The notes below the pieces were generated by a model, which was given only the letters and a program-made list of their open reading frames with translations, was not told the DNA's origin and did not search any database. Shown in pieces: positions 7,470-27,222 of a stretch of DNA of 64,000 nucleotides; the first letter of the stretch is position 1; the number at the start of each line of letters is the position of its first letter. A program made the position numbers and the translations under genes. Origin of the DNA: Candidatus Aminicenantes bacterium (GTDB taxonomy: Bacteria > Acidobacteriota > Aminicenantia > JAMOAD01); NCBI GenBank assembly GCA_027067555.1, contig JAMOVU010000172.1, positions 6,650 to 70,649 of the forward strand. The letters are read 5' to 3'.

Positions 7470-7760
7470 ATGCCGATATATGAGTATAAATGTAGTGAAT
7501 GTGGGTATGAATTTGAAGAGATTCAAAAGTTTAACGATCCCCCAATAACAGTTTGTCCTAAGTGTGGAGGAAAAGTTTGTAAAAAAATAAGCGCACCTGC
7601 ATTCAAGTTTAAAGGATCCGGTTGGTATGTGACAGATTATTCTAAAAAGAGCTATAAAGAGGCATCTGAGAAAAAAGAGGATAAAAAAGAACTTAAAAAG
7701 GAAGAAAATAAAAAAACAAAACCCGAAGAAACAAGGGCTGTTTCTTCGGCTAACACTTGA
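7470..7760 (+). CDS. FmdB-family zinc-ribbon protein with Lys/Glu-rich C-terminal tail
   Basis: MPIYEYKCSECGYEFE...CPKCGG two CxxC pairs (FmdB/TIGR02605-like); own TTGACA-17-TATATT promoter upstream. Confidence 0.7.
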   Translation: MPIYEYKCSECGYEFEEIQKFNDPPITVCPKCGGKVCKKISAPAFKFKGSGWYVTDYSKKSYKEASEKKEDKKELKKEENKKTKPEETRAVSSANT

Positions 7761-7971: not shown

Positions 7972-8029
7972 TTTTCTCTTGACATTCTCCTCTTTTTTTT
8001 TTATATTATTAAATCGCAAGGAGGAAAAA

Positions 8030-10174
8030 ATGGATTTTAATGAAAGAATGATTCAAAAGAGAGATGGTCGCTATGCAGCGTTTGACGAAACAAAAATTTT
8101 TAACGCACTTTATAAGGCTTTTAGGGCGGTAGGGAAAAAGGATGAAAATGTAGTCCTTTATATTTCTAAGGAAGTTGTTAAAAGATTGGAAGAAAGATTC
8201 TTTAATTATGGGATAGTTCCCAATGTCGAAGAGATTCAGGATATTGTTGAAAGTGTGCTTATTGAAAAGAATGAAGCTTCTGTTGCAAAAGCCTATATCC
8301 TTTACAGAGAGAAGAGATCAGAGCTTAGAGACATAAGGCAGAATTTTCTTGATGGTATTAAAGTAATTGATGAATATCTGAGTATGCGGGACTGGAGAGT
8401 TAAGGAAAATTCCAATATGTCTTATTCTCTTCAGGGGCTTAATCTTCACATTTCTTCCACCCTTGTTGCCAAATACTGGTTAAGAAAACTTTATCCCCTT
8501 GAGGTGAGAATGGCTCATCAGGAAGGAGACTTCCACATACACGATCTTGGTATTCTTGGCCCTTATTGTGTTGGATGGGATCTTGAAGATCTTTTGAAAG
8601 TAGGTTTCACAGGAGCAAGAGGGAAGGTTGAATCCAAGCCTGCAAAACACTTCAGAACCGCTCTTGGCCAGATAGTAAACTTTTTTTATACTCTTCAGGG
8701 GGAAGCTGCGGGAGCCCAAGCTTTCTCAAATTTTGACACACTTTTAGCTCCTTTTATAAGATATGACGGATTGTCCTATAAAGATGTTAAACAGGCAATG
8801 CAGGAATTTGTTTTTAATGTAAATGTTCCTACAAGAGCCGGATTTCAGACTCCATTTACAAATATAACAATGGATCTTGTTCCCCCATCCACTTTAAAGG
8901 ATAAAGCTGTTGTGATAGGTGGAAAGGAGATGCCGGAAACATACGGAGATTTTCAGGAAGAAATGGATATGATAAATTCTGCGTTTGCAGAAGTTATGAT
9001 GGAAGGTGATGCCAAGGGCAGAATTTTTACTTTTCCCATTCCTACTTATAATATTTCAAGGGATTTTGAGTGGGAAAATGATAATTTAAAACCTCTGTGG
9101 GAAATGACTGCTAAATACGGAATTCCGTATTTTGCAAATTTTGTCAATTCTGATATGAATCCTGAAGATGCAAGATCAATGTGTTGCAGACTCAGACTTG
9201 ATAACAGGGAGCTATGGAAAAGAGGAGGAGGACTTTTCGGAGCGAATCCTCTTACAGGTTCAATAGGAGTTGTGACTATAAATCTTCCGAGAATAGGTTA
9301 TCTTGCAAACAATGAAAGTGAGTTTTTTAATATGCTTGAAAGAATGATGGAACTTGCTGTTGAGGCCCTTGAAATAAAGAGAAAGAATGTTGAAAGATTT
9401 ACAGAAGCAGGCCTTTATCCATATACGAAATTTTATCTAAGAGAGATAAAAAAGACTCATGGTAAGTACTGGAATTTCCATTTCTCTACCATCGGACTTG
9501 TGGGAATGAATGAAGCAATGCTTAATTTTATGGGAAAACCGATTACTGACCCTGAAGCAAAAGCTTTCTCTATCAAAGTTTTGGATTACATGAGGGAGAG
9601 AATTCAGGATATACAGGAAGCAACGGGTAATATGTATAATCTTGAAGCTACTCCTGCAGAAAGTACAACATACAGACTTGCGAAACTGGATAAGGAAAAA
9701 TATCCTGATATTATTACTGCCGGTACAAGTGAGCCTTATTATACAAATTCAGTACATCCTCCTGTTGATGCTTATGATGATGCTTTTGAAATCTTGGAGC
9801 ATCAGGATGATTTGCAGATAAAATTCACAGGAGGAACGGTTGTTCATCTTTTCTTTGGAGAGAATATAAAAGATTGGAGGGTTGTAAGAGAACTTACAAA
9901 GAGAATTACCTCTAAATACAGACTTCCCTATTTCTCTTTCACGCCTACTTTCTCAATTTCCCCTGTTTCAGGGTATATTCCCGGTAAGCACGATTTTGAT
10001 CCTAATGTGAGAAGTAAAGAGGATATAGAGAAATTTGGAGTGGAGATTGAGCTTACGGAAGAGGAGCTTAAAAATCTTCCGGAAGGTTCATACATAATAG
10101 TAGAGGAAGAAGATAAAGATGAAGATAAAAAAGATGAAGATAAAAAACTTACGCTTAATCTTAAATTGAATTAA
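8030..10174 (+). CDS. nrdD: anaerobic ribonucleoside-triphosphate reductase (class III RNR) large protein with N-terminal ATP-cone; C-terminal zinc-ribbon cysteines replaced by Ser; acidic KD-repeat tail
   Basis: ATP-cone at MDFNERMIQKRDGRY...; NrdD core; strong SD AAGGAGG 8018..8024 so true start is ATG 8030 rather than ORF start 7979. C-terminus ...TPTFSISPVSGY where canonical NrdD has CxxCGY. Confidence 0.85.
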   Translation: MDFNERMIQKRDGRYAAFDETKIFNALYKAFRAVGKKDENVVLYISKEVVKRLEERFFNYGIVPNVEEIQDIVESVLIEKNEASVAKAYILYREKRSELRDIRQNFLDGIKVIDEYLSMRDWRVKENSNMSYSLQGLNLHISSTLVAKYWLRKLYPLEVRMAHQEGDFHIHDLGILGPYCVGWDLEDLLKVGFTGARGKVESKPAKHFRTALGQIVNFFYTLQGEAAGAQAFSNFDTLLAPFIRYDGLSYKDVKQAMQEFVFNVNVPTRAGFQTPFTNITMDLVPPSTLKDKAVVIGGKEMPETYGDFQEEMDMINSAFAEVMMEGDAKGRIFTFPIPTYNISRDFEWENDNLKPLWEMTAKYGIPYFANFVNSDMNPEDARSMCCRLRLDNRELWKRGGGLFGANPLTGSIGVVTINLPRIGYLANNESEFFNMLERMMELAVEALEIKRKNVERFTEAGLYPYTKFYLREIKKTHGKYWNFHFSTIGLVGMNEAMLNFMGKPITDPEAKAFSIKVLDYMRERIQDIQEATGNMYNLEATPAESTTYRLAKLDKEKYPDIITAGTSEPYYTNSVHPPVDAYDDAFEILEHQDDLQIKFTGGTVVHLFFGENIKDWRVVRELTKRITSKYRLPYFSFTPTFSISPVSGYIPGKHDFDPNVRSKEDIEKFGVEIELTEEELKNLPEGSYIIVEEEDKDEDKKDEDKKLTLNLKLN

Positions 10175-10194
10175 ATTTAATAAGGAGGAATAAA

Positions 10195-10401
10195 ATGGAA
10201 AGAATTGAGGAGACAAAAGAGGTTAAAACAACAACCTCAAAGAAAAAAGTTAGGGTTAAAGTAGTGCCTACAGAAATTTATTCAAGGGTAGTGGGGTATT
10301 ATAGGCCTGTTCAGAATTGGAACAAAGGAAAAGCGGAAGAGTTCAAGCACAGAGCAATCATAGATCCTAATCATCCTACAAAAAAGAGAATAGAAATTTA
10401 A
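10195..10401 (+). CDS. stand-alone glycyl-radical domain protein (NrdD C-terminal domain homologue), cysteine-free
   Basis: 68 aa with ...SRVVGYYRPVQNWNKGKAEEFKHR matching the NrdD glycyl-radical region (RxxGY...WNxGKxxExxxR); own SD AGGAGG 10183..10188, different frame from nrdD. Confidence 0.6.
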   Translation: MERIEETKEVKTTTSKKKVRVKVVPTEIYSRVVGYYRPVQNWNKGKAEEFKHRAIIDPNHPTKKRIEI

Positions 10402-10425: not shown

Positions 10426-10451
10426 GCGGGAAAAGGTTTTCCTTTTCCCGC
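10426..10451 (+). terminator. strong hairpin (11-bp perfect stem, TTTT loop) between glycyl-radical ORF and nrdG; possible partial terminator/attenuator
   Basis: gcgggaaaagg-tttt-ccttttcccgc followed by tctctctatttt. Confidence 0.4.
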
Positions 10452-10473
10452 TCTCTCTATTTTAAACAGGAAG

Positions 10474-11174: not shown

Positions 11175-12002
11175 TTAACTGAAAGCAACATCTAAAATCA
11201 TCATAACAACAAAACCTAACATTAAGCTCATTGTAGCAAGATCAGTGTTGTCTCCTTTCTGAGATTCGGGTATAACTTCTTCCACAACTACATATATCAT
11301 AGCTCCTGCCGCAAAGCTTAATGCAAAAGGAAGGATTTTTTGAAAAGTTGTCACAAAAAGCACACCTGCTATTGCAGCAATAGGTTCAACTGCTCCGGAG
11401 AGCTGTCCGTAAAAAAAACTTTTAAACTTTGACATCCCACCTGTTCTCAGAGGAAGGGAGATTACAGTGCCTTCCGGGAAATTTTGAATTCCGATTCCTA
11501 TTGCAAGAGAAAGTGCGGCACTTAAAGCTGCGATAGAATTGTTTTTAATCAAAGCACCAAAAGCTACTCCGACGGCAAGCCCTTCTGGTATATTGTGCAA
11601 AGTTACGGCTAACAAAAGTAAGGTATTTGTTTTAAAGTTTGTTTGAATACCTTCCACTTTTCCCTCTTCCGCACCAAAGTGTTGATGGGGAATTATTGCG
11701 TCCATAATTCTTAAAAAGATTCCTCCCAGGAGGAAACCAATTGCCGGGGGAACCCATAGAGGAAGAGGTAAATTTTTTGACATTTCTATTGATGGTGCAA
11801 GAAGTGACCAGAAACTTGCGGCTATCATAACACCTGCTGCAAAACCTAACATTGTTTCCAGAAGTTTCTGATTTGCCTTTTTTACAAAGAATACAAGTGA
11901 TGCTCCTGCTGCTGTCATGGCCCATGTAAAGAGAGTTGCATAAAAAGTATTTAAAAGTGGAGAATTGTTTTTAAAAAGTTCTAAAAAATTACTTATATGC
12001 AA
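11175..12002 (-). CDS. ZIP-family zinc/metal transporter (ZupT-like)
   Basis: 8 TM helices, HNIPEGLAVG / His-rich motifs typical of ZIP. Confidence 0.8.
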   Translation of the reverse strand: MHISNFLELFKNNSPLLNTFYATLFTWAMTAAGASLVFFVKKANQKLLETMLGFAAGVMIAASFWSLLAPSIEMSKNLPLPLWVPPAIGFLLGGIFLRIMDAIIPHQHFGAEEGKVEGIQTNFKTNTLLLLAVTLHNIPEGLAVGVAFGALIKNNSIAALSAALSLAIGIGIQNFPEGTVISLPLRTGGMSKFKSFFYGQLSGAVEPIAAIAGVLFVTTFQKILPFALSFAAGAMIYVVVEEVIPESQKGDNTDLATMSLMLGFVVMMILDVAFS

Positions 12003-24897: not shown

Positions 24898-27222
24898 ATG
24901 AAAAAAACATTGCTTGTTTTTCTATTATTCAGTTTTTTTTCTTTATCTTTTTTTTATGGAAATGAAGGAAATGGTAATGAAAATTATCAGATTGATAATT
25001 TATTACTTTCTCTGCTTCCCGGTGGAAATTTCCTGAACTCTTCGTTTGAAAATTTTTTCCCGACAACTACTTTTTTGATAGAGGAAAGCAATGGTTTCTC
25101 TTTGCTGGATTTAAGCAAGGTATACTTTGAAGGGGAATCCCCATTAAATTTTAAATTTTACATTGAAGATTTTTATGCAAGCTCTACTCTGAATCCAGGC
25201 ACAAATTCAATTTTGGCTCCTTTACTTAATATTTATGATTATCACTTGAGAACATCGGATAATTTAAAATCCGGCTTTGATTTGGATATAAGCAAAAATA
25301 TTGATTTGAACAGATTCTATTTTTCGTCTGTTTATACTGATCTTGGCTCATTTCCTGATTTTGCAACATCTCTTATGAATAAACATCCTTCCACGAGGGA
25401 TGATAAACTTTACTATACGAGAAGAAAACTACTTTCAAACAATATTATTGGATTTTCAAAAGACATTGATTTAAACAGCTCCAACCTTTTTGTTTCTTTT
25501 TCTTATGTTAATTTAAAAAGACAATTCAATGATTTCTCAAAAGAGAAAGATTCTGTTTTTAATGAAAGGGGGGAACTATTTTCCTTTCTCTCTCTTTATA
25601 AAAAATCCTTTGATAATTCTACTTTGAAAATTATTACAGCTTTAAACAAAAGATTCAGGGATCATCTGAATTCTGAGTTTGGAAGATTACCTTCGGAAAC
25701 TTTTGGAAATAGCTATTTTTCTTTTTTAACAGGTTTTCTTTACAAGGGAGAAAATTATTTTATTAAAAATTCATTTCTATATGAGAGTGAAAACAGGACT
25801 CCTGATTTTTCTTACTATGAAAAGGATATGATGGATAATGATGGTGATGCAATTTATCTTTTTGATAGGTTTGGTAAATTTGGGGCTTTTACAATTTCGG
25901 TTGATGGGGAAAAGAGATTTGATATTAGTAAAAATTTTGATTTCTATTTTTTCTCTATAAATAGATTAACTTTTATTAAGGGAGATGAAGGAGATTATGG
26001 GAACTCTTTGCTTTTGTTTGGTGGAACTCCTTTGTATAATGTAGTATGGAGAGCCGGAGAGAAATATTCTAATACAAAGACTCAATTATTATTGGGGACT
26101 GCTTTTAATTATATAATAACGGATTTTTTAACCCTTCAAGGCAGACTGTATATTAAATCATCCCTTTTGGGGTTTGAAAACAGGGAAAATAATCTGGTTC
26201 TTAGCGGGGGGGCTTTTGACCTTAAAGCTATACTGTTTAAAGGGAAAAGGGCAGAGTTTTTAATTTATTATGGGCGGAAACCTCAGGATATAAACGAGAC
26301 TCTAAACTTTTTTCTTGAGGCACGGAGACCCTCCGGAACCTTTTATGATTTAAAGGGAGAGACTATCTCATATACCGGCGGCTCTTACCATAGTGTTTCA
26401 AGTGATATAAAGACTCCGTACGAAAAAAGGTTTATTATTTCATCTATAATCAATTTATCAAAGGTTTTTAAATTAAAAATAAGAGGACTTTATGTTCAAT
26501 TTCTTAATAATCTCTGGGTTAATTATGAAGATTATGATGGTTATTATAAAAGAGTAGATGGTTTTAACCTCTATTTCCCTAAAAAAGCCTCGTATTATAA
26601 TTTTTCAAATTATGAATTTGATAAGAACCCGTTTTATGCTGAGTTTATGCTTCATCTTTTTGGTAGAAAAGAGAAAAAATGGTTTTTTTCATTTTCATTT
26701 ATGGCGCATATGGGGATGGGATACACTGCTTTTGGAAATGGGCCGGTTTACAATGATATAGGTTATATTGATGAAAGTATGGCAAATCCAAACACATGGA
26801 TAAATGGATATGGCAGAGTGGATGGGGATAGAGCTTTTGTCGGAAGAATACTGTTTGGAATCTATCTTACTAAAAATCTTAGTTTGGGAGCAAATATTAA
26901 GTACAGGGATGGTGAACCCTTTGCGTTTATAAAGTATTATATTGATAATGGAAGACTTGCTCTTTACTATCCTCACATACAGGCAGAGGATGAAAGAGGT
27001 GTAAAAGGGGGGCCTCGTGAGGATTGTATCTGGGATATGAGTTTTAAAATTAATTATTCTCTCGAATTTGGCAAAAGAAAAGCAAATGTTTTTATCTCCT
27101 TTTTTAATATTCTTGATGTTGGAGCAGAACTTTCGGAATATGTTTTTACTCCTGATAGAAGAGATGCTGTTGAGCTTCAAATACCGAGAAGTTTAAGATT
27201 TGGCCTGGAATATATCTTCTAA
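24898..27222 (+). CDS. large predicted outer-membrane protein (signal peptide, beta-rich, C-terminal ...RFGLEYIF)
   Basis: Signal peptide MKKTLLVFLLFSFFSLSFFYG; amphipathic beta-strand-like repeats with Tyr/Phe; terminal Phe as in OM beta-barrels. No specific family recognised. Confidence 0.5.
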   Translation: MKKTLLVFLLFSFFSLSFFYGNEGNGNENYQIDNLLLSLLPGGNFLNSSFENFFPTTTFLIEESNGFSLLDLSKVYFEGESPLNFKFYIEDFYASSTLNPGTNSILAPLLNIYDYHLRTSDNLKSGFDLDISKNIDLNRFYFSSVYTDLGSFPDFATSLMNKHPSTRDDKLYYTRRKLLSNNIIGFSKDIDLNSSNLFVSFSYVNLKRQFNDFSKEKDSVFNERGELFSFLSLYKKSFDNSTLKIITALNKRFRDHLNSEFGRLPSETFGNSYFSFLTGFLYKGENYFIKNSFLYESENRTPDFSYYEKDMMDNDGDAIYLFDRFGKFGAFTISVDGEKRFDISKNFDFYFFSINRLTFIKGDEGDYGNSLLLFGGTPLYNVVWRAGEKYSNTKTQLLLGTAFNYIITDFLTLQGRLYIKSSLLGFENRENNLVLSGGAFDLKAILFKGKRAEFLIYYGRKPQDINETLNFFLEARRPSGTFYDLKGETISYTGGSYHSVSSDIKTPYEKRFIISSIINLSKVFKLKIRGLYVQFLNNLWVNYEDYDGYYKRVDGFNLYFPKKASYYNFSNYEFDKNPFYAEFMLHLFGRKEKKWFFSFSFMAHMGMGYTAFGNGPVYNDIGYIDESMANPNTWINGYGRVDGDRAFVGRILFGIYLTKNLSLGANIKYRDGEPFAFIKYYIDNGRLALYYPHIQAEDERGVKGGPREDCIWDMSFKINYSLEFGKRKANVFISFFNILDVGAELSEYVFTPDRRDAVELQIPRSLRFGLEYIF

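Follow-up and report, generated by a model that had tools for sequence, protein, structure and literature searches.

Results

A class III ribonucleotide reductase gene in two pieces

We analysed a stretch of 64,000 nucleotides (nt) from a Candidatus Aminicenantes bacterium (contig JAMOVU010000172.1 of assembly GCA_027067555.1, positions 6,650 to 70,649; hereafter the window), in which nrdD, the gene for the anaerobic class III ribonucleotide reductase (RNR), is split into two open reading frames (ORFs). The first encodes a chain of 714 amino acids (aa) that reads ...TPTFSISPVSGYIPGKHDFDPNVR...EEEDKDEDKKDEDKKLTLNLKLN in its C-terminal portion and ends in ...TPTFSISPVSGYIPGKHDFDPNVRSKEDIEKFGVEIELTEEELKNLPEGSYIIVEEEDKDEDKKDEDKKLTLNLKLN. 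Its TAA stop (10172..10174) is followed, after 20 nt (10175..10194), by the ATG of a 68-aa ORF in another frame, which contains the glycyl-radical loop with Gly34 (RVVGYYRPVQNWNKGKAEEFKHR; the loop stretch around the Gly34 codon at 10294..10296 is EIYSRVVGYYRPVQNWNKGKAEEFKHR). The gene for the activase NrdG starts 72 nt downstream of the small ORF; it matches TIGR02495 (E 1.6e-63, 213.5 bits against a cutoff of 131) and has Radical_SAM and Fer4_12 domains. An initial annotation, made from the letters of this stretch, had described the end of the large ORF with Ser644 (9959..9961), Ser647 (9968..9970), an acidic tail and a stop, and a cysteine-free small ORF in another frame with AGGAGG 6 nt from its ATG; all of this is confirmed at base level. 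The best start for nrdD is ATG 8030, with an AGGAGG 6 nt upstream; the TTG at 7979 given by the ORF finder falls within the promoter-like TTGACA-17-TATATT. That element is a consensus match only, and such sites are not above shuffled expectation in this region. The coordinates of all features are collected in Table 1.

Table 1 Features of the split nrdD locus and of its surroundings in the window
Feature	Position	Strand	Evidence or remark
Zn_ribbon_8 (FmdB-type) small protein, directly upstream of nrdD	7470..7760	+	
Promoter-like TTGACA-17-TATATT upstream of nrdD	7979..8007	+	11/12 consensus matches
nrdD large (catalytic) chain, 714 aa, ATP-cone and barrel, without glycyl-radical domain	8030..10174	+	Pfam, NCBIfam, AlphaFold2 model
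ATP-cone (allosteric) domain, aa 8-99	8051..8326	+	PF03477, E 9.5e-22
Degenerate metal-binding site S644, S647, D657, R661	9959..10012	+	Comparison of C-terminal tails
Large-chain C-terminal tail, aa 662-714	10013..10171	+	AlphaFold2 model, dN, tail alignment
15-nt tandem repeat, 2.2 copies, perfect, encoding the KDEDK repeats of the acidic tail	10115..10147	+	
Shine-Dalgarno sequence AGGAGG of the small ORF	10183..10188	+	6 nt before ATG 10195
Small glycyl-radical subunit, 68 aa, no Cys	10195..10401	+	Pfam NRDD, NCBIfam
Codon GGG of Gly34, predicted radical site	10294..10296	+	
Terminator-like hairpin (11 bp stem, 7 GC pairs) with T-rich tail, between small ORF and nrdG	10426..10461	+	
nrdG, radical-SAM activase of NrdG2 type, 232 aa	10474..11172	+	TIGR02495, Radical_SAM, Fer4_12
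ZIP-family zinc transporter gene, converging on the end of nrdG	11175..12002	-	
774-aa ORF, no Pfam match at E up to 0.001	24898..27222	+	

The Pfam and NCBIfam coordinates on the two ORFs are complementary, so that a single family profile is split over both. The large ORF matches Pfam NRDD (PF13597) over model positions 1-522 of 562 (E 8e-180, 599.7 bits, cutoff 26.2), and the radical loop (RVxGY) is not on this chain; the small ORF matches the same model at positions 533-560 (E 2.5e-8, 33.5 bits, also over the cutoff). Likewise, NCBIfam NF006126 covers positions 4-653 of 684 on the large ORF (1022.8 bits, cutoff 548) and 650-681 on the small one, and TIGR02487 gives 509.6 bits on the large ORF (cutoff 326). 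Models of the B12-dependent RNR (NrdJ) reach the large ORF only through the ATP-cone (aa 7-125), far under their cutoffs. For the small ORF, a Pfam scan at E up to 1 returned only PF13597 and no Gly_radical (PF01228), and NCBIfam returned only NrdD models, matched at their C-terminal ends. A phmmer search of the Protein Data Bank (PDB) with the small ORF alone gave no NrdD match; a profile of the small family finds as its best match the radical loop of Thermotoga maritima NrdD (residues 612-645, KVDEYMRIVGYLVPV...), with an E of only 0.08. These coordinates support the initially proposed division into a catalytic chain without a glycyl-radical domain (GRD) and a separate glycyl-radical polypeptide, and the small ORF does align with NrdD radical domains by Pfam, NCBIfam and the T. 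maritima loop.

Both chains are under constraint. In the large subunit, Y179-C180 and S383-M384-C385-C386-R387-L388 are invariant among 85 aligned relatives; we take Y179-C180 and C385-C386 to fill the barrel-cysteine and finger-loop-cysteine roles of published NrdD structures. The nonsynonymous divergence (dN) of this chain from its relatives is 0.027-0.095. As its catalytic residues are invariant, the large subunit looks like a working enzyme in need of a radical source. The small chain, of 7.9 kDa, consists of a basic N-terminus, a KVRVKVVP strand and a hairpin plus helix (EIYSRVVG34YYRPVQNWNKGKAEEFKHR). Aligned homologues share Y29, R31, V32, V33, G34, Y35, R37, P38, W42, N43, G45, K46, E49 and R53 without exception, and the Gly of RVVGY is invariant in 32/32 aligned small proteins and in 110/110 rows of a mixed alignment (A8, a workable mix; in MAFFT alignments of other composition, where large-only sequences were many beside small proteins or fragments, the radical loop was put in the wrong place). 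Compared with two metagenome-assembled Aminicenantes genomes, the closest in the species-representative collection (L003 and L004), the small ORF has a dN of 0.032, a synonymous divergence (dS) of 0.97 and a dN/dS of ~0.03 against L004, and a dN of 0.117 against L003; synonymous sites are near saturation or, against L003, saturated. The small ORF is thus under strong purifying selection.

The split is widespread

The split of nrdD is real and not an artefact of this contig. An independent Logan assembly (SRR7968104) and the European Nucleotide Archive (ENA) contig of the window have the identical arrangement, with the exact small protein and the same neighbours, and both L003 and L004 keep the TAA, the Shine-Dalgarno (SD) sequence and the ATG. 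A search for the small protein found 141 clusters, and the 120 of them that were listed are all 44-100 aa long. Among 1.84 billion representatives, a profile search gave 4972 matches, the best 150 of which all have 49-133 aa, which amounts to at least 150 clusters (50% identity) of standalone GRD proteins of 49-133 aa in at least eight bacterial groups. On the side of the large subunit, the GRD is absent in 117 of the 120 closest NrdD clusters, only P0233 and P0237 being fused; with a fused C-terminus as query, only short fragments and small proteins were returned and no full-length fused enzymes. The 80 loci that we compared came from species-representative genomes; among them, a GRD-less nrdD followed closely by a short standalone ORF with the radical loop is found in Aminicenantes, Hydrothermota, WOR-3, TA06, Fermentibacteria, Thermodesulfobacteriota, Aquificota, Thermosulfidibacter, Brevinema, Anaerolineae and Spirochaetota, isolates with the split include Thermodesulfatator autotrophicus S606, Thermodesulfobacterium thermophilum DSM 1276 and T. 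hveragerdense DSM 12571, and the large subunit of Thermodesulfatator indicus DSM 15286 (P0177, on a 2.32-Mb contig) also lacks the GRD. The small ORF is therefore conserved as a separate gene in related genomes, and orthologous loci have the same split rather than a continuous nrdD with four cysteines. Recurring in dozens of independent genomes, the two-ORF arrangement is far beyond chance, and split NrdD is a widespread, conserved architecture not peculiar to this genome.

Fused relatives with the same C-x3-H insertion (described below) also exist (P0233, P0237, L052 and L081), which shows that both halves function jointly, as a single domain. A rough neighbour-joining tree groups the C-x3-H sequences in a single clade that excludes the canonical enzyme, and the fused forms are scattered within this clade; P0233 (712 aa) nests among split Thermodesulfobacterium sequences. 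This scatter suggests that the split state flips easily. The P0233 junction (...YGIEVNSRKQIPCEVYSR) resembles a deletion joining the tail of a large subunit to a small subunit, and P0233, known from a single contig, may be a natural re-fusion or else may stem from an error of assembly or gene calling.

Evidence for separate translation of the two chains

The spacing between the nrdD stop and the small-gene ATG differs among lineages, from -14 (an overlap) to +82 nt, in all three relative frames, and some junctions are ATGA-type overlaps typical of translational coupling. A ribosome-binding site of its own precedes the small gene at every junction that was read (the window, L003, L004 and L083). 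The order nrdD, small gene, nrdG is conserved, with an nrdG homologue directly 3' of the small gene in most split loci. In two genomes, one of WOR-3 (L007; 3081-3242) and one of Spirochaetes (L024; 2765-2938), the small gene has no nrdD or nrdG within several kb. Because spacing and relative frame vary in this way, separate translation of the two chains is the only consistent reading. The unlinked small genes have as neighbours an SPFH/band-7-like gene (L007) and an ORF whose C-terminus looks by eye like that of a leucyl-tRNA synthetase (L024).

The metal site and the tail of the large chain

The initial annotation had proposed that the large chain lost the first CxxCGY knuckle of the C-terminal zinc ribbon, and with it the whole ribbon. 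Both positions of the first knuckle are indeed Ser here; the relatives, however, have CxxHGY rather than CxxCGY. In the nearest unsplit relatives, such as that of Desulfurella acetivorans (L060), the motif reads TPTFSIC-x2-H-GY...C-P-x-C-G; since their first knuckle is Cys/His, Ser647 replaces a His. The window has S644, S647, D657 and R661 at the ligand positions (TPTFSISPVSGYIPGKHDFDPNVR), against TPTFS[IV]CPVHGY..G.H..CP[YH].H in its relatives, whose ligands are C, H, C, C or C, H, C, H. Loss of the ribbon holds for the subclade of the window, in which all four ligands are lost (32 of the 120 closest large subunits; Aminicenantes-like sequences, Hydrothermota and L005), with Cys replaced by Ser, His by Ser, Thr, Arg or Asn, Cys by Asp and His by Arg or Gln. 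It does not hold for most split enzymes, which keep Cys/His/Cys/His on the large chain: in 85 of the 120 the motif is C-x2-H...C-P-x-x-H (C-P-V-H-G-Y...C-P-[YH]-x-H), and the four potential ligands are followed by a conserved SEE[ED]L..[FY]G element. By these sequence comparisons, split and metal loss are separate events. The metal site is thought to stabilise the radical domain (PMC9669993). As the clade includes enzymes without metal ligands, the site appears to be dispensable there: the four ligands lie on one chain, possibly are divided between two, or are absent, as in the window.

The divided state is suggested by a sister lineage (P0114, on 21 contigs, with L083 and L065), whose large chain ends ...CPVHGY...CPHH. 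At L083:2790-3198 the large subunit ends ...CPVHGYIAGEHHTCPHHVSEETTKTDMPIQQ, and the small subunit starts MKKNDICGERTEVYSR 13 nt later. The fourth canonical Cys is on the small chain in L083, L065 and small proteins of the P0084/P0106-P0109/P0114 type, and in the P0114/L083 lineage a metal ion may bridge both subunits.

We propose three steps for the history of this clade: (i) exchange of the second CxxC knuckle for C-x3-H and a helical insertion, (ii) fission with occasional re-fusion, and (iii) loss of the metal ligands in the window subclade. We infer this order as the most economical from a crude tree.

Two genes near the locus touch on zinc. The Zn_ribbon_8 protein encoded upstream of nrdD was rejected as an in-trans replacement of the zinc ribbon; it is a neighbour in only 2 of 81 loci and is absent beside L003 and L004. 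A Zn_ribbon_8 homologue also lies directly downstream of the unlinked small gene of L007 (L007:3247-3639), probably by coincidence. The ZIP gene is an odd neighbour for a reductase without zinc ligands, and there is no evidence of a link.

Beyond the ligand positions, the tail of the large chain evolves faster than the rest of the protein (dN 0.31 against 0.095, compared with L003). Its SEE[ED]L..[FY]G helix-strand element is found in split and in some fused relatives. The tail ends with an acidic stretch and a terminal LTLNLKLN, and the 15-nt repeat encoding KDEDK points to expansion by slippage in a linker free of constraint. Elsewhere in the family, large subunits reach ~1000-1180 aa (L018, L032 and L045, all Thermodesulfobacterium, as well as P0150, P0190, P0214, P0226 and P0234), enlarged by an insertion of ~300-380 aa near residue 274. 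P0214 carries LAGLIDADG and intein-splicing Pfam domains, which points to inteins in the split nrdD of several lineages.

A predicted structure of the joined chains

We modelled the two window proteins as one continuous chain with AlphaFold2 (AF2); class III RNRs make up all of the 36 best PDB matches to this model. The tail is predicted as a helix (663-669), a strand (671-676), a helix (677-681) and a strand (688-690), and the acidic stretch after it (694-729 in the numbering of the joined model) is disordered, with a predicted local distance difference test score (pLDDT) below 50. In the small chain, the N-terminal strand RVKVVP has a pLDDT of ~84 and is followed by a hairpin (IYSRVV / YYRP; 741-746 and 749-752) with Gly34 at its tip and a helix after it. 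Hairpin plus helix is the arrangement of the glycyl-radical loop in solved NrdD structures, with which the prediction agrees. The large-chain tail has a charge of -4 and the small N-terminus one of +4, consistent with association.

Other observations

Unsplit NrdDs of Lachnospiraceae, Oscillospiraceae and other Clostridia (L027-L078) carry an extra domain of ~100 aa after the radical loop. It contains a ...LFTTKTCPNCK... motif, from which it looks thioredoxin/glutaredoxin-like by eye, and it may be a fused reductant. Elsewhere in the window, the 774-aa ORF of Table 1 is preceded by an ORF of 234 aa that has a double zinc ribbon and weakly matches a phosphoribosyltransferase.

Discussion

The locus most probably encodes an obligate two-subunit class III RNR in which the radical hairpin is supplied in trans, a reading to which we assign a probability of about 0.85. 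Gene fission inside the C-terminal domain would have given an obligate two-polypeptide enzyme: nrdD ends after the remnant of the metal knuckle and a short helix-strand tail, and a separately initiated gene encodes the hairpin. The small protein would dock on the large subunit, where its KVRVKVVP strand probably extends a sheet with the large-subunit tail and its basic N-terminus (+4) may help by facing the acidic tail (-4), and would insert the Gly34 hairpin into the barrel beside the finger-loop Cys385/Cys386. NrdG with S-adenosylmethionine would abstract the C-alpha hydrogen of Gly34, and the radical would then pass from Gly34 to Cys to substrate, as in single-chain NrdD. The terminator-like hairpin before nrdG (10426..10451 without the T-rich tail) could act as a partial terminator, lowering nrdG expression relative to the two structural chains. 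Glycyl radical enzymes swing the radical domain out of the barrel for activation, and O2 cuts them at the glycine. In a two-chain enzyme, the domain that leaves the barrel for activation by NrdG would be untethered, and cleavage by O2 would cost only the 7.9-kDa chain, so that the 714-aa catalytic subunit need not be remade. Going further, the radical cofactor might be a free-standing, exchangeable protein of 6-8 kDa, activated by NrdG off the enzyme, then docked, and swapped after O2 damage or for regulation; we put this forward tentatively, as a possibility that we hold to be somewhat doubtful.

Two explanations would do away with the second chain altogether. The DNA of this region is metagenomic, AT-rich (34% GC) and rich in homopolymers, and a low-complexity 15-nt repeat lies just before the nrdD stop, as would suit a sequencing or assembly indel, or a recent pseudogene, in an nrdD that is truly continuous. 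Yet two independent assemblies agree, the stop, SD and ATG are kept in relatives saturated at synonymous sites while the small ORF retains its low dN/dS, and dozens of genomes, isolates among them, share the split with differing junction sequences; an artefact of this kind has next to no probability left. The variety of junctions also bears on whether the two ORFs could yield one polypeptide, through programmed frameshifting, stop read-through or protein trans-splicing, as might be suspected from their adjacency on the same strand and from the small frame, which is open for 10 codons before its ATG and overlaps the end of nrdD. However, with junctions that range from a 14-nt overlap to an 82-nt gap in three frames, each with its own ATG and usually an SD, no conserved slippery sequence or frameshift signal is possible, and in L007 and L024 there is no nrdD within several kb to be joined. 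The junction segments, as read from the sequence, are moreover too short for trans-splicing (~50 and ~25 aa) and are without the terminal residues of split inteins. We therefore consider a single polypeptide very improbable.

The remaining alternatives accept two chains and concern what the second one is for. The small protein might be a GrcA-like spare for a complete NrdD encoded elsewhere, the GRD-less ORF being inactive or having another role. In favour of this, the small gene can be unlinked from nrdD, as in L007 and L024, and our view is limited to this window of the genome. But the large subunit keeps its catalytic residues, its ATP-cone and its strong constraint, the window contains neither another nrdD nor another GRD, and the order nrdD, small gene, nrdG is the rule; the near-universal lack of the GRD among the closest clusters (117/120) also means that there is no pool of complete partners in the clade. 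We judge a spare part of this type to be improbable. Weightier, if still unlikely in our estimation, is a split that is real but without selective value, the gene having broken within a flexible surface linker where a break is tolerated and brings no benefit for repair or activation. This linker is disordered and evolves fast, and fused forms are scattered in the split clade, with P0233 inside the Thermodesulfobacterium split sequences. Against this, the split dominates among the closest clusters and persists in at least eight bacterial groups over deep divergence, and conserved elements that exceed a mere linker are present both in the tail and in the small-chain N-terminus. Several points also count against the obligate two-subunit enzyme that we prefer. 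Formation of the complex and the radical on Gly34 are predictions, and AF2 docks the hairpin without confidence (pLDDT ~58-61 for the GRD and below 50 for the finger loop). The window comprises 64 kb of one metagenomic contig, and a second complete nrdD elsewhere is possible. The advantage of a replaceable subunit would follow by analogy with GrcA, and the ease with which fused and split forms appear to interchange leaves room for merely tolerated fission.

Compared with the single-chain NrdD/NrdG systems of phage T4, Escherichia coli, T. maritima, Prevotella copri and Streptococcus thermophilus, the split enzyme has a homologous barrel and ATP-cone, a homologous loop (RVxGY...N.GK..E) and a co-encoded radical-SAM activase, and the chemistry is presumably the same. 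It differs from them in that the radical loop is on a separate 68-aa polypeptide and that the four-ligand metal site is absent (Ser, Ser, Asp and Arg instead); the large-chain tail of ~50 aa is not seen in the canonical fused NrdDs compared, such as L060. GrcA/YfiD, like T4 Y06I, is an autonomous glycyl radical cofactor of pyruvate formate-lyase (PFL) and, like the protein here, a small standalone GRD protein. The likeness to GrcA/YfiD drawn in the initial annotation is apt as a functional analogy and fails as a statement of ancestry: GrcA derives from the C-terminus of PFL and belongs to Pfam Gly_radical, whereas the small protein here is NrdD-derived and matches only NRDD. Furthermore, PFL retains a GRD of its own, for which GrcA stands in only once O2 has cleaved it, while the catalytic chain here is without a GRD, which would make the small protein an obligatory subunit and not a spare. 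In the split class II RNR NrdJa/NrdJb, a C-terminal module (a zinc finger and a redox Cys pair) is also a second polypeptide (PMC9669993), but this enzyme belongs to the adenosylcobalamin class, has no glycyl radical, and its detached piece has reducing cysteines rather than the radical cofactor. Small extra polypeptides are likewise part of other glycyl radical enzymes, namely 4-hydroxyphenylacetate decarboxylase (HPAD), benzylsuccinate synthase (BSS) and methylalkylsuccinate synthase (MASS) (PMC13450708); those are iron-sulphur (Fe-S) or rubredoxin-like proteins with the glycine on the large chain, whereas here a Cys-less small chain bears the glycine.

Previous work provides a context for these differences. 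According to a 2026 review, formate-lyases are the only enzymes with known spare-part proteins, and the only small subunits that it lists are those of HPAD, BSS and MASS, in none of which the glycine resides (PMC13450708). Glycyl radical enzymes are cut by O2 at the glycine that bears the radical, the activity of PFL is then restored by a small autonomous radical domain, and spare-part proteins beyond PFL have been a matter of speculation in the field (PMC8683613). The large RNR phylogeny papers describe the split class II NrdJa/NrdJb and no split NrdD (PMC9669993, PMC9531940, PMC4390871), and we found no described split NrdD in the searchable literature, which comprised open-access papers, so that a mention elsewhere is possible. 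The small protein has no model of its own among those returned by Pfam and NCBIfam, all of which describe full-length NrdD, and in the sources the small proteins are labelled 'hypothetical', 'uncharacterized' or as a full 'anaerobic ribonucleoside-triphosphate reductase'. Given these labels, split enzymes could be overlooked or misclassified in surveys that demand a catalytic chain with a GRD.

The split NrdDs offer a natural two-component system in which to study activation, docking, radical transfer, subunit exchange and oxygen repair. If the small protein is indeed exchangeable, the radical of this glycyl radical enzyme would reside on a subunit able to dissociate, a principle for which class I RNR, with its separate radical-generating subunit, is the only other known example, and this would be the first system of the spare-part type outside the formate-lyases.

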